Below, piece after piece: positions 1,687-55,504 of a DNA stretch of 64,000 bases (positions are counted from its first letter, which is position 1; each line of letters starts with the position of its first letter). A program made the position numbers and the translations under genes. This DNA is from Candidatus Roizmanbacteria bacterium (GTDB lineage Bacteria > Patescibacteriota > Microgenomatia > UBA1406): the NCBI GenBank assembly GCA_024654535.1, contig JANLHL010000016.1:160626-224625 (forward strand), written 5' to 3'. Under the pieces are notes generated by a model, which was not told the origin of the DNA, ran no database searches, and saw only the letters and a list, made by a program, of their open reading frames with translations.

Positions 1687-3096
1687 TTATCGACCTACAC
1701 CTAACACTGCATGTGCAATATCTTTCATACGTTGTACGAATGGCAAATAAACCCTAAATTCTGGTACTGGTGTAGCAGTTGGCGGTACAGGGGTATCGGT
1801 TGGTGGAACAGGAGTTGCAGTATCGGTTGGTGTCGGTGGAACAGGAGTTGCAGTATCGGTTGGAGGTACTGGCGTTTCGGTGTCTGTCGCAGTGGCCGTT
1901 GCAGTGGCAGTATCTGTGGGCGTAGGTGTTGGCGGTGGGTCAATAAGACTATATTCTACAGCAATCATATGCATGAAACCTTCGAGATTAGTAAATTCAC
2001 CATCTGCATTATTACCATACTGCGCAATTAACTCTTTCATTCGTGCGATTGGTATTATTGCAGCGCCATCTGGTCGCAAACCTTGAGCCATTTGCATAAT
2101 CGCTGCCATTTCAGAAACCGGTATGTGCGGACCAGCCACATAATTTATGTCGTTAGGATTTACATATCCCCAGATTTGCCCTGGTAATAGCACATCGCTA
2201 TGCCCAGAATCTGCTGGATTTTGAGATGATCCCGCAATAATTACGTGTTGAGCAATATCCGGGTCGTTTGCGAGGGTGGTTCCTGGAGCAAACACGATGG
2301 TGACACCTTTCCCAGCAGCTTTAGCTATATCTGCTTTTAGTAAATTTGAGGGCTCTGTATAAGCACCATCTACAGCTACCACCGTAATACCTTTAGAATC
2401 TTTTGCAACCAAACTCATAGCAGATGCTACGGCATTAGTTTGATCCAGTAAAGACGTGTCACTTCTTGTTCTTATGACACCCGGGATGACCATACTGGCG
2501 ACTGGTGAAATTCCCGTAAGTCCCATACCGTTATCTGGTAATGAAAATGGGCTTACCATTCCGTTAGAAGCTTGATTATCAGCAAAGACTGTAAAGGTAT
2601 TATCTCCACCTTCATTCCAGTCTCGTGAATAAGGATGATTCGCAGTTCCCCTAACGACAATGGTATCTATATCTACAGGATCATTTGGGTCATAGCCAAT
2701 ACCACCGCCTAGTAGTAACACAGCATTTTGTGGGTCTGGATTGGGGTTGTTTGGATCGTACACGTATCCAGGGTGTGCTAATACGTATAATTCATTGTAT
2801 CTCGCTATGGCACTAAGGTAATCTTGCTCAGTTCCACCTGCTATTGCAGCTAATTCTGGAATCTGATGGAAATATTCTGGATCAGTTGGGACTAGCAAGT
2901 TCAACGCATCGGGTATACGATATAATTGAGCATCAGCATCTATCCCAACAGGAGCAACAGTGGCAGCTTGAGCTACTGGAGGTCTAAAGAATCTAGCTAA
3001 CCAAGGGAATGCGGCAATTGTTGCAAGTGCAGCTGCTCCAACAGAAGTATCTCTTATCAATTCACGTCTCGTTATTCCAACTCTATCTTTATCCAT
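1687..3096 (-). CDS. Secreted protein of unknown function with twin-arginine signal and Thr/Pro-rich C-terminal linker
   Basis: N-terminus MDKDRVGITRRELIRDTSVGAAALATIAAF (RR + hydrophobic core). C-terminus PPPTPTPTDTATATATATDTETPVPPTDTATPVPPTPTDTATPVPPTDTPVPPTATPVPEF followed by a 22-aa tail RVYLPFVQRMKDIAHAVLGVGR. TGtTACAAT (rc 3103-3111) 6 nt before ATG. Confidence 0.75.
   Translation of the reverse strand: MDKDRVGITRRELIRDTSVGAAALATIAAFPWLARFFRPPVAQAATVAPVGIDADAQLYRIPDALNLLVPTDPEYFHQIPELAAIAGGTEQDYLSAIARYNELYVLAHPGYVYDPNNPNPDPQNAVLLLGGGIGYDPNDPVDIDTIVVRGTANHPYSRDWNEGGDNTFTVFADNQASNGMVSPFSLPDNGMGLTGISPVASMVIPGVIRTRSDTSLLDQTNAVASAMSLVAKDSKGITVVAVDGAYTEPSNLLKADIAKAAGKGVTIVFAPGTTLANDPDIAQHVIIAGSSQNPADSGHSDVLLPGQIWGYVNPNDINYVAGPHIPVSEMAAIMQMAQGLRPDGAAIIPIARMKELIAQYGNNADGEFTNLEGFMHMIAVEYSLIDPPPTPTPTDTATATATATDTETPVPPTDTATPVPPTPTDTATPVPPTDTPVPPTATPVPEFRVYLPFVQRMKDIAHAVLGVGR
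1765..1950 (-). repeat. Coding low-complexity Thr/Pro/Ala/Asp linker with exact 29-nt direct repeat
   Basis: ggtggaacaggagttgcagtatcggttgg occurs at 1802-1830 and again at 1835-1863 (33-nt period). The surrounding sequence encodes the PT-rich linker of ORF 1687..3096. Confidence 0.85.
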
Positions 3097-5207: not shown

Positions 5208-5330
5208 TTTTTGACATTTGAACTTTGACATTCAATTGGCATTTGACATTGAGATTTGGTCATTTATTTGTCATTAGAACTTTGTCATTTGACATTAATT
5301 GGATATTTGATATTGGATATTGGATATTTT
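5208..5330 (+). repeat. Heptamer array, forward orientation (TTTGACA/TTTGAAC/TTGGATA words)
   Basis: Reads tttgaca tttgaac tttgaca ttcaa ttggca tttgaca ttgaga tttggtca tttat ttgtca ttagaac tttgtca tttgaca ttaa ttggata tttgata ttggata ttggata. Same vocabulary as the nine other intergenic sites. Confidence 0.9.
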
Positions 5331-11125: not shown

Positions 11126-12126
11126 AAATACATATTTCAATAATCATACCGGTTCGCGAAATAAATGATTATGTTACAAATGAAAATTTGCCTGCATTTG
11201 TACATCAAACGTACAAGAATTTCGAAGTTATAGTACTACCAAACGAATTGAGAAAAGAAGACAAAGCCCTTCTTACGAAGTATCCATTTTTGCGCATCAT
11301 CCCAACCGGTAACATAACGCGCCCTGCACTAAAAAGAGATATTGGGGCAAAGCACGCAAACGGAACTATTTTGGCCTTTATCGATGACGACGCTTATCCG
11401 AAAAGCGACTGGCTCAAACATGCTGAAACATTATTTACTAAAAAAGATGTTTCATGTGTTTGTGGGCCAGGGGTATTGCCAAAAAATACAAACATATGGG
11501 AAAAAGTATTTGATGAAATTCTTGTGAGCCCAGTAGGGAGTGGGGGATACGGGTATCGCTTTACCCCAAAAGAGACACGCTTTGTCGATGATTACCCTTC
11601 GATGAATTTTCTCATAACCAAAAAATTATTTACCCGTATCGGCGGATTTAATAATAATTTTTGGCCAGGAGAAGATAGTAAACTCTGTAACGATATTGTC
11701 TATAAAGAACACGAAAAAATTCTCTACTCTCCCAACGTTATCATCTATCACCACCGCAGAAATAGCCTCGTACCGTACTTACGCCAGCATATGCAATATG
11801 GATATCATAGAGGTGCGTTCATTGCTGTTGGCGATAAAAATTCACTTAAGATTAATTACTTTTTGCCACTATTTTTTCTATTATACTGCCTTTCTTTACT
11901 CGTACTTTTACCCTTTTTTACCCCACTATATTTTGCGCCACTTATTGCATATCTATTGTTAAGTGTTGTAATAGCAGTGCGTGCATTTTTAAAATACAAA
12001 AATATTTTTTATATAGTAGCTATTCCGAGTGTCTTATTTCTTACTCACATGCTTTACGGTATGTCTTTTCTGAAAGGTTTAGTTGTAGGTTTTATAAAAA
12101 GGGATAAAATATATGGGAATGAATAA
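11122..12126 (+). CDS. GT2 glycosyltransferase with C-terminal TM region
   Basis: ISIIIPVREINDYV, FIDDDAYP and WPGEDSKL motifs. ATGA overlap with the upstream gene. Confidence 0.8.
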   Translation: MKIHISIIIPVREINDYVTNENLPAFVHQTYKNFEVIVLPNELRKEDKALLTKYPFLRIIPTGNITRPALKRDIGAKHANGTILAFIDDDAYPKSDWLKHAETLFTKKDVSCVCGPGVLPKNTNIWEKVFDEILVSPVGSGGYGYRFTPKETRFVDDYPSMNFLITKKLFTRIGGFNNNFWPGEDSKLCNDIVYKEHEKILYSPNVIIYHHRRNSLVPYLRQHMQYGYHRGAFIAVGDKNSLKINYFLPLFFLLYCLSLLVLLPFFTPLYFAPLIAYLLLSVVIAVRAFLKYKNIFYIVAIPSVLFLTHMLYGMSFLKGLVVGFIKRDKIYGNE

Positions 12127-12200
12127 TATCCAATATCAAATATCCAATATCCAATAAAGTTCAAATGTCAAATGTCAAAATCAGATACTTGTCATTTGCA
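12125..12200 (-). repeat. Heptamer array, reverse orientation (TATCCAA/TGTCAAA words)
   Basis: aatatccaatatcaaatatccaatatccaataaagttcaaatgtcaaatgtcaaaatcag is the reverse complement of the vocabulary at 5208-5330. Confidence 0.9.
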
Positions 12201-12214
12201 TATAGGCTATAAGT

Positions 12215-12478
12215 TTGATTGAATATACGCTCATGGATAAAGCAACACTATATAAAAAGGGTGACATGGAGATTCGGGTACTGAGAAGCACCTGTATCGG
12301 AGCAGCAACATGTGTGGTGTACGCACCCAGCACGTTTGATCTTGATGATGACAGCATAGCGATAGTTAAAAATGGGCAGTGGGATAGCTTAGAAAAGATT
12401 ATTGCAGCTGCGCAGTCGTGCCCCGTTGTCGCAATCGAGGTATATGTGAAGGGTAAAAAAGTGTACCCCAAAGGGTAA
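12215..12478 (+). CDS. Small single-cluster ferredoxin
   Basis: MEIRVLRSTCIGAATCVVYAPSTFDLDDD...AAAQSCPVVAIEV: C-x2-A-x2-C ... C-P pattern of mono-cluster 3Fe/4Fe ferredoxins. Real start uncertain (TTG 12215, ATG 12233 or ATG 12266). Confidence 0.7.
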   Translation: MIEYTLMDKATLYKKGDMEIRVLRSTCIGAATCVVYAPSTFDLDDDSIAIVKNGQWDSLEKIIAAAQSCPVVAIEVYVKGKKVYPKG

Positions 12479-12573
12479 TATCCAAGTTCAAATATCCAAC
12501 TCGCCTGCCGGCGAGGCAGGTAAATGTCAAAGTTCAAATGTCCAGTTCTGATATTTGATATTGGGTATTGGAT
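12477..12573. repeat. Compact palindromic heptamer element (reverse words - GC hairpin - reverse words - forward words)
   Basis: aatatccaagttcaaatatccaa | ctcgcctgccggcgaggcagg (12500-12520) | taaatgtcaaagttcaaatgtccag | ttctgatatttgatattgggtattggat. The GC core CGCCTGCC...GGCGAGGCAGGTAAA is shared with 37175-37220 and 44464-44529. Confidence 0.85.
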
Positions 12574-32426: not shown

Positions 32427-32488
32427 AATATCCAATTTCAAATATCCAATATCCAATAAAATCAAAATGACCAAATTAAAATGTCCAA
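32427..32488 (-). repeat. Heptamer array, reverse orientation
   Basis: aatatccaatttcaaatatccaatatccaataaaatcaaaatgaccaaattaaaatgtccaag. Confidence 0.9.
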
Positions 32489-32925: not shown

Positions 32926-33067
32926 TTATTGGAAATTGGATATTGGATATTTATTGGGCTTTGGATATTGGATATTGGGTATTAACTTGATATTTGTCAT
33001 TGGGATTTTGTCATTCAATTGCCATTTGTCATTTGAACTTGGACATTTATTAGATATTGGATATTGG
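32926..33067 (+). repeat. Heptamer array, forward orientation
   Basis: tttattggaaattggatattggatatttattgggctttggatattggatattgggtattaacttgatatttgtcattgggattttgtcattcaattgccatttgtcatttgaacttggacatttattagatattggatattgg. Confidence 0.9.
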
Positions 33068-34278: not shown

Positions 34279-34305
34279 TTCGACTTATCGCTCGTGTATT
34301 CTGAT

Positions 34306-34405
34306 TAATATTTGATATTTGACATTGGGATTTGGACATTTATTTGATATTTGACATTTGAACTTTGACATTTGACATTTATTTGATATTGGTTATTGGA
34401 TATTT
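34306..34405 (+). repeat. Heptamer array, forward orientation
   Basis: taatatttgatatttgacattgggatttggacatttatttgatatttgacatttgaactttgacatttgacatttatttgatattggttattggatattt. Confidence 0.9.
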
Positions 34406-34421
34406 AGTTTATAATTACCCT

Positions 34422-35714
34422 ATGCACAAACGCTCCGCATTCATTATCACCCTCATATTTGGCCTTACCTCTGTCGCAAATATTGCTGCACAAATAGTCA
34501 TTGCGCGCGTATTTGGTATTTCACTCGAACTCGATGCATTTTTAATCGCAGTAGCACTGCCAACGATGATAATAGCTGTTTCATACGCCAGTATAAACGA
34601 TACATTCCTACCGCAATATAGCACAGCAAAGCACACAGACGAAGCACGCAAAGTTGCAGGTTCATGGGTACGCACAATAGCCGTACTAGCAGCAAGCTTG
34701 AGCTTGCTCTTCTTTCTTTTCCCACGTGAAATACTGACCCTCTTATTTTCGACAGTATCAGAGCAATCGTACCAGTACCTTCAGATACTTGCGCCTGCGT
34801 GTTTCTTTGGCATGCTGACGGCATTGTTTATGAGTATTAGCTACAGTCATAAGCATTTCTTACTACCTCCTCTCGTACAGCTTGTGGGGGCCACTATAAA
34901 TATTGCCCTTATTTGGTTCTTATTCCCATATGTTGGAGGGCTTGCGCTCCCTTTTGCTTTTGTTGGCAACTATGTGCTCCAATTTCTCTTCGTTGTCAGT
35001 AACATACGCTATGCAAATTTAAAAGCAAGCCTCGTATCATTTCCTCAACTATTGCCGCTTTTTATACTTTTTGGCACGTATTTGCTCATGCGCACCGACA
35101 CGCTGCTCTTACGATTCGCAAGCGTAGGCTTGGGTACAGGGGCTGTGAGCTTGGTAAACTACAGCGCGCGCATGATGAGCATGCCCAGCGGTCTTATAAC
35201 CTCGGGTATAAAAGTTATTTTACTACCACTCTTGGCCGAAACAGTGCGCAATAACAATACGAGTCGCTTTTCTTCTCTCTATACAAAAGCAATACTTTTT
35301 GCACTACTACTGACAATTATTGCTGTCGTTACAATGGTAATCATCTCACTGCCGCTTCTTAAAATTCTCTTTGTCAGAGGTAAGTTTACCTTTGCTGACG
35401 CGATACAGGTGAATACTCTTATACCGTGGTTTATACCTGCAGCACTTGGCTGGGGACTCTTTGAAATTGCAAGCGCTCCTTTTTTTGCAGTGAAGAAGTA
35501 TGTACCAGTTGCGCTTACCACTACATGCAGTTTTCTCATATCACTCGCAGTTATTTTTCTATTCAAGCAAACACTCGGTGTGTATACAGCAGCTCTCGCA
35601 ACGGGGAGCTTATTGGGAGTCAATACCGTTTTGTTACTTGTGGTATGGCAGGTAAATAAGGGGAAATACATGGAGGAGAAGAATATCCAATATCAAATAT
35701 CCAATGTCAAATAA
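34422..35714 (+). CDS. murJ: Lipid II flippase MurJ (MviN family, MOP superfamily)
   Basis: N-terminus SVANIAAQIVIARVFGISLELDAFLIAVALP matches the MurJ signature (R..G....DAF..A..lP), with about 14 TM helices. ATG 34422 preferred, because track start 34365 translates the array. TATAAT 34410-34415 lies 6 nt upstream. Confidence 0.8.
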   Translation: MHKRSAFIITLIFGLTSVANIAAQIVIARVFGISLELDAFLIAVALPTMIIAVSYASINDTFLPQYSTAKHTDEARKVAGSWVRTIAVLAASLSLLFFLFPREILTLLFSTVSEQSYQYLQILAPACFFGMLTALFMSISYSHKHFLLPPLVQLVGATINIALIWFLFPYVGGLALPFAFVGNYVLQFLFVVSNIRYANLKASLVSFPQLLPLFILFGTYLLMRTDTLLLRFASVGLGTGAVSLVNYSARMMSMPSGLITSGIKVILLPLLAETVRNNNTSRFSSLYTKAILFALLLTIIAVVTMVIISLPLLKILFVRGKFTFADAIQVNTLIPWFIPAALGWGLFEIASAPFFAVKKYVPVALTTTCSFLISLAVIFLFKQTLGVYTAALATGSLLGVNTVLLLVVWQVNKGKYMEEKNIQYQISNVK

Positions 35715-37131: not shown

Positions 37132-37398
37132 CCAATATCCAATAAATGTCAAATGACAAAGTCCTAATGACAAACCCGCCTGCCCGCTTCGACGCGAGGC
37201 GAGCCGGCGAGGCAGGTAAAGTTCAAAATCCCAATATCAAAAATAGTCGTCATTGCGAGGAACCCGCCTAAGGCGGGGACGAAGCAATCTAATCTGGAGA
37301 GATTGCCACACTCAACTTCGTTTCGCTCGCAATGACAAGGTTATTGGGCATTGGAACTTTGTCATTTATTTGATATTGGATATTTGAACTTTGACATT
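37119..37398. repeat. Composite palindromic element A (reverse heptamers - GC hairpin - reverse heptamers - GTCATTGCGAG hairpin - forward heptamers)
   Basis: Layout: 37119-37173 reverse words, 37175-37216 cccgcctgcc...ggcgaggcagg, 37217-37245 reverse words. 37248-37338 forms a stem tcgtcattgcgag / ctcgcaatgacaa enclosing cccgcc-taa-ggcggg (37263-37277) and gcaatct / agattgc (37284-37290 / 37300-37306). 37339-37398 carries forward words. Homologous to 44437-44726. Confidence 0.9.
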
Positions 37399-44436: not shown

Positions 44437-44726
44437 ATCAAATATCCAATATCAAATGTCAAACCCGCCTGCCCGCTTCGACGCGCCTACGTCGACGCAG
44501 GCGCGAGGCGAGCCGGCGAGGCAGGTAAAGCTCCAAATCCCAACGCCAAAAACGATCGTCATTACGAGGTGGTAATTTAGTTTGTCGTTGCAAGGAGCGA
44601 AGTGACGAAGCAATCTTGTCAAAAGACAGGGGATTGCTTCGCTACGCTCGCAATGACAGGGTTATTGGACATTGGAGCTTTGTCATTTATTGGGTATTTG
44701 AACTTGGATATTGGATATTGGTTATT
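44437..44726. repeat. Composite palindromic element B (homologue of element A)
   Basis: Same order of parts as 37119-37398. The GC hairpin (44464-44525) is about 20 nt longer and contains the near-perfect palindrome gcgcctacgtcgacgcaggcgc (44483-44504). Core stem tcgtcattacgag / ctcgcaatgaca, with gaagcaatc / gattgcttc (9 bp). Forward words at 44660-44726. Confidence 0.9.
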
Positions 44727-53399: not shown

Positions 53400-54305
53400 C
53401 TACTTACTCTGTTTTTTTGCATATATCTTCATAAAATACCAACTGATTCCAAAAACCACAATATCACGAATAAGCGTCAAGACCCTTTGTACGAGTGATA
53501 GTGAAAATCCTAGTATAAACGCTTTTTCTATATTTTCCAAAAAAATGCCGAGTAAATATTCGCGTATACCCAAACCCGACGGCGCTGGTAAAAATAGAAA
53601 ACCACCAATCCAACTTATGACATAGCTTGCGCTTACGTACAAAAATTGACCGATAGTAAAGTGAACAGTATTATAAGCATAGAGAAGCAACGCAAAAGAA
53701 AAACCGGTGACAACCCAGAATGCTAGATTGTAGAAAGCTAGACGTACAAAAGATGAAATTGAATAGACATAGAAAAATGGGTAGCGACGCAATATATAAA
53801 ACGAAAGAACGCCACCAATAACAACTACCAAACATGCCCATACATACGAAAGAGGAGTGGGCAGAAAAATTGCGACGAGCGGTGCAGCCATAAATGGACC
53901 AAAGAAAATAAGACCAAACACTATACGCCAAAACATCTCGACAAAAATAAGCTTTGTCGATCGCAGTAGTGAAGCTTGGCTATTTTTATTTAACATAACC
54001 ACTGCGTCCAACTGATTCCATATGCCACCAGGTACATATTTCAAGAGTCCGTTGTGTGCCAAAATATACAATTGAGTAGGAGAATCTATTACAAGTTTGA
54101 GGCTTTTTACAAGAACCTCTCTGCTCTTATATTGAAACCAAAAGGACGGAAATAGCAAAAAAAGTGATAGGCCAAGCAACATTGGATTCTTTACGTTAAA
54201 AAAGCTGACGATACTATTTTTATTTGCATACAAAAAGTATGCTATAAAAGCCCACGTTACAATAAAAAAAACCGACTGGGCATATTTTAATACGCTCTTA
54301 AGCAT
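53400..54305 (-). CDS. Membrane protein with lysyl-PG-synthase-TM / flippase-like domain (UPF0104-type)
   Basis: About 8 TM helices. FLPAPSGLGIREYLLGIFL resembles the conserved P-G-G-x-G-x-x-E motif of that family. ATG 54305 preferred, because track start 54434 translates the array. TATACT (rc 54312-54317) 6 nt upstream. Confidence 0.55.
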   Translation of the reverse strand: MLKSVLKYAQSVFFIVTWAFIAYFLYANKNSIVSFFNVKNPMLLGLSLFLLFPSFWFQYKSREVLVKSLKLVIDSPTQLYILAHNGLLKYVPGGIWNQLDAVVMLNKNSQASLLRSTKLIFVEMFWRIVFGLIFFGPFMAAPLVAIFLPTPLSYVWACLVVVIGGVLSFYILRRYPFFYVYSISSFVRLAFYNLAFWVVTGFSFALLLYAYNTVHFTIGQFLYVSASYVISWIGGFLFLPAPSGLGIREYLLGIFLENIEKAFILGFSLSLVQRVLTLIRDIVVFGISWYFMKIYAKKQSK

Positions 54306-54342
54306 ATAAATAGTATACAGCCCTGGACCATATGGTGCAGGG

Positions 54343-54476
54343 AATATCCAATAGCAAATAAAGTCCCAATTCCCAATGTCAAAGGTCAAATGACAAATGT
54401 CAGAATTGGACATTGGAACTTTGTCATTTGTCATTCGTCATTCGTCATTCATTTGACATTGGATATTGGATATTGG
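54343..54476. repeat. Palindromic heptamer element C (reverse half then forward half, no core)
   Basis: 54343-54404 holds reverse words (aatatccaatagcaaataaagtcccaattcccaatgtcaaaggtcaaatgacaaatgtcag). 54405-54476 holds forward words, including the exact 7-nt register TTTGTCA TTTGTCA TTCGTCA TTCGTCA TTC (54421-54450) and TTGGATA TTGGATA. Confidence 0.9.
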
Positions 54477-54482
54477 AAACTT

Positions 54483-54498
54483 ACCTGCGCAAGCAGGT
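54483..54498. repeat. Minimal CCTGC/GCAGG hairpin with GCAA (GNRA) loop
   Basis: acctgc-gcaa-gcaggt is a perfect 6-bp stem. It has the same stem words as the CCTGCC...GGCAGG cores at 12500, 37175 and 44464. Confidence 0.7.
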
Positions 54499-54525
54499 TG
54501 GATACTTCTACCCTCCACATTCCTC

Positions 54526-54555
54526 TTGACAATACCTTGAGAGATGATCCATACT
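54526..54555 (+). promoter_or_regulatory. Candidate promoter TTGACA-18-CATACT
   Basis: TTGACA 54526-54531, 18-nt spacer, CATACT 54550-54555. Same hexamer pair as the rSAM promoter at 12608. It would start a roughly 170-nt leader ending at the 54729 terminator. Confidence 0.4.
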
Positions 54556-54604
54556 GTAATCTCTTGCAATTCTAGTAGTATAAATAGTAAAATATATAAC
54601 TAAT

Positions 54605-54676
54605 ATGTATAAAGACGTTTTGAGAACCGTTATTTTCAGCATCCTCCTCCTTGCAAAAGCGAGGGCGGATGTTTGA
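54605..54676 (+). CDS. Candidate 23-codon leader peptide MYKDVLRTVIFSILLLAKARADV
   Basis: ATG 54605 to TGA 54674-54676. The Ile-Leu-Leu-Leu run (54641-54652) lies on attenuator segment A. The ORF ends just after segment B. TATATA 54593-54598 lies 6 nt upstream. Too short for the ORF track. Confidence 0.3.
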   Translation: MYKDVLRTVIFSILLLAKARADV

Positions 54677-54729
54677 TGGTTTTCAAGACTTCCAGAAAAT
54701 ATCCGCCCGCTAGCCGGGCGGATTTTTTT
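54640..54729 (+). promoter_or_regulatory. Four-segment terminator/antiterminator (attenuator-like) structure
   Basis: Four segments: A CATCCTCC (54640-54647), B GGGCGGATG (54663-54671), C ATCCGCCCG (54701-54709), D CGGGCGGAT (54715-54723) followed by T-run to 54729. A:B pairs 7 of 8, B:C is 8 bp perfect, C:D is 9 bp perfect plus the U-tract, which makes an intrinsic terminator. B and D are direct repeats competing for C. Confidence 0.6.
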
Positions 54730-54761
54730 ATAAGTTAAAACAGGAATGGAGATGAATATAT

Positions 54762-54959
54762 ATGCCAGATATAGATACACAAACAGGTACTGAATATGTA
54801 TTACCAGTAACAGTAGATACCGCAGTCATAGCAATAGGAACAGCTGCTACAGTATCTGCTGTAGAAGCGCAACGACTGTTATTAGAACAAGTCCATGCAC
54901 AGTATGGTACCGATCCTAGACAAATAGCTGCAGCATTTCAAAATTCAGGAATGCAATAA
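54762..54959 (+). CDS. Small hypothetical protein (65 aa)
   Basis: MPDIDTQTGTEYVLPVTVDTAVIAIGTAATVSAVEAQRLLLEQVHAQYGTDPRQIAAAFQNSGMQ. One of the few starts with a GGAG (54748-54751) 10 nt upstream. Bracketed by the attenuator and a strong terminator. Confidence 0.55.
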   Translation: MPDIDTQTGTEYVLPVTVDTAVIAIGTAATVSAVEAQRLLLEQVHAQYGTDPRQIAAAFQNSGMQ

Positions 54960-54974
54960 TTACTACACAAAATC

Positions 54975-55016
54975 AAAATGAGGCCACATTTGATCGGGTG
55001 TTAGTGGCCTCATTTT
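54975..55016 (+). terminator. Strong hairpin terminator (13-bp perfect stem)
   Basis: aaaatgaggccac (54975-54987) pairs perfectly with gtggcctcatttt (55004-55016). The 3' arm ends in TTTT. The hairpin is symmetric, so it could act in both directions. Confidence 0.7.
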
Positions 55017-55087
55017 CGCTCTGTATGATAGAATATAGACAAGCACGATATCTGTCTTTATACAAGTAAAGAAGAAGTGCATCAATA

Positions 55088-55504
55088 ATGTCAGTAGATA
55101 ACTTAAGACGTCGCTTCACACACATATTTTTATCGGCAATGATCGCGCTGACCATATCTAGTTGCGTTGATAGGCAAAATTCATTAGACGAGGCCACTCC
55201 ACCCTGCTTGCCCGTAGAATGGGTTCAATTGATCCCTCGGGGAGATTTTACATACATAGGTTCAGTAATAGTAATGAATAGTGGAGGTGAGCTTATTGTA
55301 GATCCAAATACACGAAATCAACCGACTGTAAAGGACGGGAATATAGTAATGACAACAAATGATGGGGTACAAGTTGCTGTTAATCCAGATAATAACTTGA
55401 TGTTATTTAATCAAGGTCTTGCACACTATTTCATTTATCCCCAACAAGAACCATACGACTCTATCAGAGCTACTGTTATTAAAACATGTGATCAAGCAAT
55501 TTAA
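55088..55504 (+). CDS. Small putative lipoprotein
   Basis: MSVDNLRRRFTHIFLSAMIALTISSCVDRQ: signal peptide plus lipobox ISSC. No family recognised. Confidence 0.6.
   Translation: MSVDNLRRRFTHIFLSAMIALTISSCVDRQNSLDEATPPCLPVEWVQLIPRGDFTYIGSVIVMNSGGELIVDPNTRNQPTVKDGNIVMTTNDGVQVAVNPDNNLMLFNQGLAHYFIYPQQEPYDSIRATVIKTCDQAI

Follow-up and report, generated by a model that had tools for sequence, protein, structure and literature searches.

The leader at positions 54526-54729 of a 64-kb stretch of DNA from Candidatus Roizmanbacteria, a member of the Candidate Phyla Radiation (CPR, Patescibacteria), raises the question of why a strong intrinsic terminator stands directly in front of a gene, preceded by a short open reading frame (ORF) and by two further helices that compete with each other and with the terminator. 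The whole 64-kb stretch is referred to as the window in the following. An earlier note on this DNA had read the region as an attenuator of the trp/leu type, with three mutually exclusive helices, a terminator and a leader ORF, and this layout has now been found in six distinct sequences that belong to three diverged clades. On a modest balance of probability, the element is a ribosome-mediated (leader-peptide) transcription attenuator, which is OFF by default and is switched on by slow translation of the leader ORF. As such, it would be a new family within a known class of regulators. Next to nothing has been learned about gene regulation and nutrient sensing in CPR bacteria, and no attenuators or structured regulatory RNAs from this lineage were found in the literature searched.

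Architecture of the leader

The features of the leader are as follows:

54526-54531 and 54550-54555, plus strand: candidate promoter P1, TTGACA, 18-nucleotide (nt) spacer, CATACT
54564-54569 and 54588-54593, plus strand: promoter P2, TTGCAA, 18-nt spacer, TAAAAT
54605-54676, plus strand: leader ORF of 23 codons, MYKDVLRTVIFSILLLAKARADV, with its UGA stop codon (54674-54676) within the 5' arm of the antiterminator
54614-54692, plus strand: long hairpin (anti-antiterminator, sequestering segment B); 5' strand 54614-54654, tetraloop 54655-54658, 3' strand 54659-54692
54640-54647, plus strand: segment A, CATCCTCC
54663-54671, plus strand: segment B, GGGCGGATG
54663-54679 and 54692-54708, plus strand: antiterminator helix, 5' arm B GGGCGGAUGUUUGAUGG, 3' arm C CCAGAAAAUAUCCGCCC
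54696-54729, plus strand: intrinsic terminator, AAAAUAUCCGCCCG/CGGGCGGAUUUUUU, loop CUAGC, U7 tract ending at 54729
54701-54709, plus strand: segment C, ATCCGCCCG
54715-54723, plus strand: segment D, CGGGCGGAT
54723-54729, plus strand: T-run (T7)

Segments A to D, the 9-bp terminator, the T7 tract and the 23-codon ORF can be read directly from the sequence and lie exactly where the earlier note had placed them, while the two upstream helices turned out to be considerably larger than proposed. B does pair with C, over 15 pairs (54663-54674 with 54697-54708 and 54677-54679 with 54692-54694, separated by a 2x2 internal loop) rather than the 8 bp first given. Likewise, A does pair with B, not as an isolated 8-bp helix but as the central part of a very stable hairpin of ~35 bp (54614-54692): its outer stem of 16 bp (54617-54632/54674-54689) is followed by a 5-nt UUUUC bulge at 54633-54637, a middle stem of 7 bp (AGCAUCC/GGAUGUU), a 4x2 internal loop and a 6-bp apical stem with the tetraloop. 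The antiterminator can coexist neither with this long hairpin nor with the terminator. In the terminator scan, C and D form a 9-pair stem (seven GC) with a 5-nt loop, followed by TTTTTT, and the stem is lengthened by A-U pairs to 54696-54728. When the scan is restricted to stems of 7 bp or more with no fewer than 5 GC pairs, loops of 3-8 nt and 6 or more T among the following 8 nt, it is the sole canonical intrinsic terminator in the window; most genes there evidently stop transcription otherwise or with weaker signals.

B and D are direct repeats with 11 of 12 positions identical, whereas their 5' partners match by eye at only ~7 of 12. This is the opposite of neutral decay and fits selection for B:C pairing, not a duplicated hairpin in decay.

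The structure clearly belongs to the plus strand. Folding of 54600-54735 yields -57.7 kcal/mol (z = -8.0), which none of 200 shuffles equals, as opposed to only -40.7 kcal/mol (z = -4.0) for the minus strand. This difference of 17 kcal/mol arises because the long hairpin contains seven G-U pairs, and it therefore points to an RNA structure on the plus strand, not a DNA palindrome. Constrained folding of the alternatives puts the long hairpin at about -38 kcal/mol, the terminator at about -19 kcal/mol and the antiterminator at -24.6 kcal/mol when the 5' strand of the hairpin is masked, and the same pattern of energies is seen in all four close variants described below. Between the 91 nt upstream and the C region, the most stable duplex reaches -26.2 kcal/mol, which is not equaled by any of 2000 dinucleotide shuffles (average -9.4 +/- 2.3 kcal/mol). 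Since the long hairpin exceeds the antiterminator in stability by 14-16 kcal/mol, read-through would require active opening of the hairpin 5' strand, and a ribosome would be the obvious agent.

Conservation and covariation among close variants

Relatives of the locus were gathered by a metagenome scan with the membrane protein encoded next to the leader and by look-ups of its homologues. The many syntenic loci obtained collapse to four distinct leader sequences, i.e., the window itself, the L081 type, the L082 type and L083. Between the window, L081 and L082, the leader core (54588-54729) is 88-90% identical, while identity amounts to 39-72% in the promoter spacers and to 46-64% in the DNA of the small ORF downstream. 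No other stretch of the locus is as strongly conserved as the leader, a pattern that indicates purifying selection on the RNA. The ORF remains in frame and keeps its length of 23 codons in L081, L082 and L083.

The RNAalifold consensus of the close variants consists of the long hairpin and the terminator, with 98.4% of cells paired, compared to at most 59% when the partners are slid against each other. Compensatory changes occur in the long hairpin at 54626/54680 (A-U to U-A) and 54653/54660 (G-C to A-U), and in the terminator at 54707/54717 (C-G to U-A, in L081 and L082); in addition, there are several switches between G-U and A-U. All 15 B:C pairs hold in all four variants, and the two positions at which C varies (one C to U, the other U to C) still pair with the unchanged B. 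These pairing-preserving changes are consistent with the antiterminator helix without proving it.

The two promoters differ in how far they are kept. The hexamers of P1, which the earlier note had taken as the promoter, are indeed present and unchanged in the four close variants, with a spacer identity of just 39-56%; P1 is specific to the window clade and not present in the distant copies L125 and L127. The promoter found in all clades is P2, whose hexamers are kept around a variable spacer, with TATAAT as the -10 box in L083. P2 is probably the main promoter, which would place the transcript start near 54600, 3-6 nt upstream of the leader AUG.

Searches from other starting points contributed no further copies. 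The 65-amino acid (aa) ORF downstream had no relatives in a scan of the genome collection, and the scan of the same collection with the thymidine kinase encoded further downstream returned 80 loci, all at 52% identity or less (Bacilli, Chloroflexota and others) and without value for synteny. Exact look-up of three proteins of the window in a contig index matched no entry, and scans of viral contigs with two conserved leader strings gave either 0 matches or chance 16-17-mers only. At L084, where the membrane-protein neighbour is 46% identical, there is no leader element; at L095 and L128, the upstream region is missing from the sequence.

Distant copies with the same layout

With a covariance model built from the four close leader sequences, a single copy of the element was detected within the window, and more distant copies were recognized elsewhere: L127 scores 32.6 bits (E = 3e-5 in a 337-kb search) and L125/L126 22.1 bits. 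Both elements are syntenic with the window and adjoin homologues of the neighbouring protein that are only 37-42% identical. Their features are:

L127 promoter: TTGCAA-17-TATAAT, ATG 8 nt after the -10 box
L127 leader ORF: MKLAVLSIIVLLLTA, 22 codons, stop UAG in the apical loop
L127 hairpin: GUCUUAU.../...AUAAGAC
L127 B-equivalent: GGCGGGG, directly 3' of the stop, copying the terminator 3' arm GGCGGGGG
L127 terminator: CCCUCGCC/GGCGGGGG with U8, next ORF 26 nt on
L125 promoter: TTTACA-17-TAAAAT, ATG 6 nt after the -10 box
L125 leader ORF: MVFKLAVIFFFLLIIRYRGREI, 15 codons, stop inside the second part of the B:C helix
L125 hairpin: UUAGCA.../...UGCUAA
L125 B-equivalent: GCGGUAGGGAG; arm copy against terminator 3' arm GCGGUAGGG/GCGGCGGGG
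L125 terminator: AGCCCCGCCGC/GCGGCGGGGCU with U8, next ORF 9 nt on

Primary sequence differs between the three clades, and the layout is one and the same: a -10 box 6-11 nt before a hydrophobic ORF of 15-23 codons with CUY Leu codons; a long hairpin over the ORF (-25 to -38 kcal/mol in all clades); a stop codon within or immediately 5' of the B arm in all six variants; a B-like copy of the terminator 3' arm; and a strong terminator, with a GC-rich stem of 9-10 bp and a U7-8 tract in all six variants, followed 9-34 nt later by a gene. As in the window, B:C pairing in L125 and L127 uses the hairpin 3' strand just beyond the apical loop. The B:C duplex reaches -20.6 kcal/mol in L125, where 2 of 2000 shuffles are as good (p about 0.001), and -14.6 kcal/mol in L127 (38 of 2000, p about 0.02). 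Across clades, the B copy changes together with the terminator, a covariation not obtainable from the close variants.

Possible translation of the leader ORF

No Shine-Dalgarno (SD) motif precedes the leader ORF. This was considered as an argument against its translation and dropped, because SD motifs are rare across the window: even with generous start choice, they precede 8 of 53 long ORFs, compared to 4% of random positions. By contrast, 13-14 of 24 promoter-proximal genes in the window have a TAnnnT box, often TGnTAnAnT, that ends 4-7 nt before the ATG (examples of ATGs near a -10 box are found at 3096 on the minus strand, 7423, the 8499 region, 33178, 37451, 40368 on the minus strand, 40416, and 44412 on the minus strand). 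This Roizmanbacteria genome thus seems to use leaderless mRNAs as a rule; no description of such a norm in CPR was found in the literature searched. The leader ATGs of L125 and L127, 6-8 nt after the -10 box, match the spacing of the presumed leaderless genes. Measured by what is usual in this organism, the leader ORF could plausibly be translated.

The codon content of the ORF gives some indication of what might be sensed. An unbroken run of CUY Leu codons is found in five of the six variants (LLL in the window, L082, L083 and L127, LL in L125), embedded in the hydrophobic runs SILLL in the window, IIVLLL in L127 and FFFLLII in L125, in which all Leu codons are CUY; within the window, CUU and CUC account for 23% and 14% of Leu codons, respectively. 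The geometry places the run, in each clade, at the 3' end of the stretch over which stalling would be productive. The same bases are also under the constraint of hairpin pairing. As for the Leu run, on which the earlier note had placed the stalled ribosome, CUY Leu codons recur in every clade, but L081 has LNL and L125 FFFLLII at this place. Leucine-specific sensing would be one possibility. Other short leader ORFs, starting at 54669 and 54675, were rejected as candidates: their lengths and ends vary among the variants.

A model for attenuation

According to the proposed mechanism, transcription would begin at P2, possibly at P1 as well, so that the RNA starts a few nt before the AUG at 54605. 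This AUG could be used by a ribosome that binds at or near the RNA 5' end, because most of the genome lacks SD motifs and leaderless mRNAs are apparently widespread. If no ribosome is present, the long hairpin would form co-transcriptionally and hide B, the terminator C:D would form, and transcription would end near 54729, giving a terminated RNA of ~130 nt as the default product and leaving the downstream gene OFF. The result would be the same for a ribosome that has reached the stop codon: its P site would lie at 54671, and the ribosome would cover the RNA to ~54686, mask B and again permit termination.

The ON state would depend on a ribosome that slows down while its P site is at about codons 8-15 (TVIFSILL), presumably with translation and transcription coupled. 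In this position the ribosome would hold the hairpin 5' strand open, and the free B could pair with C before D is transcribed; no terminator would form, and RNA polymerase would continue into the gene 32 nt downstream. What the leader is thus proposed to sense is slow elongation where Ile, Phe, Leu and Val codons abound, caused either by scarcity of charged tRNA, for which the tRNA-Leu reading CUY is the most recurrent candidate, or by general translation stress.

Downstream genes and genomic context

The features around the leader are listed here:

53400-54434, minus strand: divergent upstream gene for a multi-pass membrane protein, a 344-aa ORF as called mechanically
54748-54751, plus strand: GGAG, SD-like motif, 10 nt before the 65-aa ORF
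54762-54959, plus strand: gene of the 65-aa protein, NUV65_02195, window clade, starting 32 nt past the U tract
54975-55016, plus strand: second terminator-like hairpin, perfect 13-bp stem AAAAUGAGGCCAC/GUGGCCUCAUUUU (AAAATGAGGCCAC/GTGGCCTCATTTT), 16-nt loop
55026-55034: extended -10-like box TGATAGAAT, the same TGATAGAAT in L081 and TGTTAGAAT in L082
L081 5976-6185 and L082 9432-9635, minus strand: downstream ORFs of the window-type family
L083 2541-4418, L125 1-573 and L127 1-549, minus strand: other downstream ORFs, those of L125 and L127 cut by contig ends

The 65-aa ORF, which had been named as the controlled gene, is non-biosynthetic as stated, while the gene at this slot is not conserved between relatives. 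Among 5.8 billion proteins it has a single match, the identical NUV65_02195 from a metagenome-assembled genome of Candidatus Roizmanbacteria, which also agrees with the earlier guess of a reduced genome. Together with the small proteins of the relatives, which are 33-35% identical to it, it forms a family of 65-76 aa with only three members among the same 5.8 billion proteins, a profile search with the three sequences included, and with the motif YG(D/T)DPRQ(K/I)AA (YGDDPRQKAA). Sequence searches of Pfam, NCBIfam and the PDB returned no match for the downstream proteins, and the AlphaFold2 (AF2) model of the 65-aa protein, at a predicted local distance difference test score (pLDDT) of 58, is too low in confidence for a fold search. 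In L083, the leader precedes a 625-aa ORF in place of the small one. The possibility that the small ORF is a remnant of this larger gene was rejected: the only hhalign match, between EQ..A.YG.D..Q of the small proteins and residues 519-530 of the 625-aa protein, covers 12 columns and is not significant (E = 0.15).

In all six variants, the downstream ORF starts 9-34 nt past the U tract, too close for a promoter of its own to fit in between. A GGAG or GGAGG motif stands 8-11 nt before the ATG of the small ORF in the window, L081 and L082, which is unusual for this genome and fits a gene that needs internal initiation on a read-through transcript. The second hairpin ends the small-ORF unit, with its stem kept and its loop variable in L081 and L082. 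Further downstream, genes for a 138-aa protein and the thymidine kinase follow, and the 64-kb window contains no tRNA anywhere.

On the other side, the NCBI annotation of the membrane protein is a 301-aa product (NUV65_02190) starting at M44, near 54305, and its relatives are likewise ~301 aa long. With this start, the intergenic region becomes ~130 nt longer and thus includes the heptamer repeats described below. One distant relative of the protein carries the label YbhN/UPF0104 from its source, and the gene heads a cluster of glycosyltransferase, epimerase, MazG, LytR and PMT_2 genes. The divergent YbhN-like neighbour is kept at every locus. In L082, a spurious 417-aa ORF crosses the leader on the opposite strand.

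Many intergenic regions of the window are occupied by arrays of a 7-nt unit, T(T/G)GA(C/T)AT (e.g., TTGACATTGGATATTGGATAT). Such arrays lie at 54343-54488 and at about 5211-5327, 12126-12178, 12478-12568, 32428-32455, 32930-33064, 34305-34396, 35683-35710, 37146-37383, 44442-44462 and 44698-44718; a 14-mer pattern of the array with up to 2 mismatches has 43 matches, compared to 2.6 expected. The heptamers just upstream of the leader promoter form an imperfect inverted repeat of 59 nt, and similar arrays are present in L081 and L082, not in L083. Protein-binding iterons, promoter-like decoys and a mobile repeat are conceivable explanations of the arrays.

Alternative explanations

Attenuation has to be weighed against the view that the leader is a gene in its own right, i.e., that it specifies a small RNA (sRNA) of ~130 nt or a hydrophobic peptide of 15-23 aa, is driven by a promoter of its own, ends in a strong constitutive terminator and is kept beside the envelope-biosynthesis cluster, the downstream genes being unrelated neighbours reached by leaky read-through. 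This is unlikely, yet it would readily account for four unrelated kinds of downstream ORF next to a YbhN-like neighbour that is conserved at every locus, as well as for the great stability of both hairpin and terminator. The peptides also share a hydrophobic core of 10-13 residues and loosely recall very short membrane peptides and type I toxins such as Ibs. However, a transmembrane helix would need a longer core, and conservation does not extend to the peptide tails. There is no evident antisense partner, folding of the minus strand is much poorer, and a check for a type I toxin-antitoxin system identified no antisense promoter or structure. More importantly, a constitutive terminator needs no antiterminator, yet a B-like copy is present in all three clades, in sequences that differ, and the position of the stop codon follows the B arm, while downstream ORFs lie close behind the U tract without a promoter.

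More doubtful still is a conditional terminator that works independently of translation, operated by a novel riboswitch ligand, an RNA-binding protein or a trans-acting RNA or tRNA, with the ORF being incidental. The three-helix layout is common to the expression platforms of riboswitches, PyrR-type elements and T-box elements. Moreover, 54594-54616, the U-rich 5-nt bulge and the linker ACUUCCAG are nearly invariant in the window clade, synonymous sites included, so that selection on these segments acts on RNA rather than on peptide. Against this, the leader is a plain rod with a variable apical part, in which neither a multi-helix junction nor a pseudoknot with invariant unpaired nt, as in a riboswitch aptamer, is evident, and between clades it is the primary sequence that is lost and the ORF with its position that is kept. 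The hairpin already exceeds the antiterminator in stability by 14-16 kcal/mol: a ligand that stabilizes it would be redundant, and any factor meant to open it would be working against -25 to -38 kcal/mol.

Rfam offers no known family for such an element. Nothing in the whole window reaches a gathering score, and a permissive search of 54300-55100 found no riboswitch family even at E <= 10. Its amino acid leader matches were all sub-threshold, with E-values of 0.7-5.8: Thr_leader (RF00506) at 18.9 bits and Phe_leader (RF01859) at 18.7 bits, both against a gathering score of 55; Trp_leader (RF00513) at 14.7 bits against 41; and Leu_leader (RF00512) at 14.8 bits against 50, with the match on the wrong strand. 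Membership of a known leader, sRNA or riboswitch family was rejected on these scores. Two further candidates were set aside: a PyrR-like binding site, with UCCAGA in the linker, is misplaced within the structure and lacks a PyrR match in Rfam, and a long-range pairing of the 5' single-stranded segment with the region after the terminator is perfect in L081 and lost in L082 and L083.

That the leader arose by chance or is a non-functional relic, such as a duplicated hairpin or a degenerate intergenic repeat with a fortuitous ORF, is very improbable: local duplication could have produced the B and D repeats, and heptamer arrays do lie immediately upstream, but the leader is the best conserved part of its locus, exists as a single copy in the window, has 3' arms far more alike than its 5' arms and recurs as a layout in distant clades with other sequences.

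Neither of the first two alternatives accounts for the way in which the B copy and the stop codon follow the terminator through three clades, or for how genes 9-34 nt past a strong terminator would otherwise come to be transcribed. A leader-peptide attenuator is the preferred reading, and the sRNA and riboswitch alternatives raised in the earlier note are less well supported.

Several observations nevertheless weigh against attenuation by a translated leader. The whole comparison comprises six distinct sequences, four of which are close relatives with most pairs invariant; the covariance score of L125 is weak (22 bits), and the antiterminator of L127 beats its shuffles only marginally. As for the ORF, chance ORFs of 23 codons are not uncommon in AT-rich DNA, and hydrophobic codons arise automatically in a hairpin strand that is rich in U and C. 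The window clade has accumulated ~6-7 non-synonymous and 5 synonymous changes in the ORF, while synonymous sites in the first 12 codons are invariant, which suggests that selection on these codons acts on RNA or DNA and not demonstrably on the peptide. In addition, the Leu run is broken in L081 (LNL), and the AUG of the window clade, 11 nt from the -10 box, makes the mRNA short-leadered (3-6 nt) and not strictly leaderless. Above all, the four kinds of downstream gene are mutually unrelated in BLASTP and lack a recognizable domain; no metabolic logic joins signal to output, and the conserved partner of the element is the divergent upstream envelope cluster, not the putative target.

Possible role and comparison with known attenuators

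CPR bacteria are generally devoid of amino acid biosynthesis. As a more speculative extension of the attenuator model, which is possible and clearly less assured than attenuation itself, the leader might serve an auxotrophic CPR episymbiont as a leaderless sensor of translation rate, and thereby of the supply of charged tRNA (tRNA-Leu for CUY, or other hydrophobic amino acids) or of ribosome-targeting toxins in the environment. It might gate an exchanging cargo slot beside the envelope glycosylation cluster, a conserved switch with interchangeable outputs, and constitute the first attenuator family of CPR. If so, classical attenuation logic would operate in a genome that is mostly devoid of SD sites and seemingly reliant on leaderless mRNAs, and a short, testable element for transcription-translation coupling in CPR would be at hand. 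The unannotated downstream genes would be flagged as functions induced by stress or starvation. The covariance model of the leader provides a means of finding more copies across Microgenomates.

The proteobacterial attenuators (trpL, leuL, ilvL, hisL, thrL, pheL) resemble the element in most of its parts: a short ORF over segment 1, helices 1:2, 2:3 and 3:4, a GC-rich terminator with a U tract, and a stop codon at which a terminating ribosome blocks segment 2. Hydrophobic Ile, Leu, Val and Phe codons are a further likeness to the ilv and leu leaders. Unlike these systems, the downstream genes are neither biosynthetic nor conserved, the run of regulatory codons is short and imperfect, and the leader ORF, leaderless or short-leadered, has no SD motif. 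The 1:2 hairpin is also far more stable, at -25 to -38 kcal/mol compared to about -11 kcal/mol in trp.

Transcription attenuators that respond to antibiotics or translation stress are a second point of reference. In Firmicutes, this class includes the vmlR and lmo0919-type leaders known from Term-seq studies. Further members are bmrB-bmrCD (PMC4191407) and mef(E)/mel (PMC4335068). These attenuators likewise combine a leader ORF with a terminator and an antiterminator, their cargo is non-biosynthetic, and read-through is set off by a stalled or slowed ribosome and not by one amino acid, as is proposed here. In contrast to the element, their leader ORFs have SD sites and their cargo is resistance machinery (ABC-F, efflux, methyltransferase), whereas no cargo family is recognized in the window clade or its relatives. 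In its output, the element seems closer to these translation-stress attenuators than to the biosynthetic ones.

A third relationship is suggested by the leaderless polycysteine short ORFs of mycobacteria, which are reported to respond to cysteine, to control cysteine metabolism and to act on translation by unmasking a ribosome-binding site, not through a terminator (bioRxiv 10.1101/834739). The element differs from them in its intrinsic terminator, hydrophobic codons and unannotated cargo. The likeness lies in the sensor: a leaderless short sensory ORF forms the first cistron, as is proposed here, and a ribosome paused in the codon run remodels the downstream RNA and turns the operon ON. In its mode of initiation, the Roizmanbacteria leader would thus stand closer to these mycobacterial ORFs.

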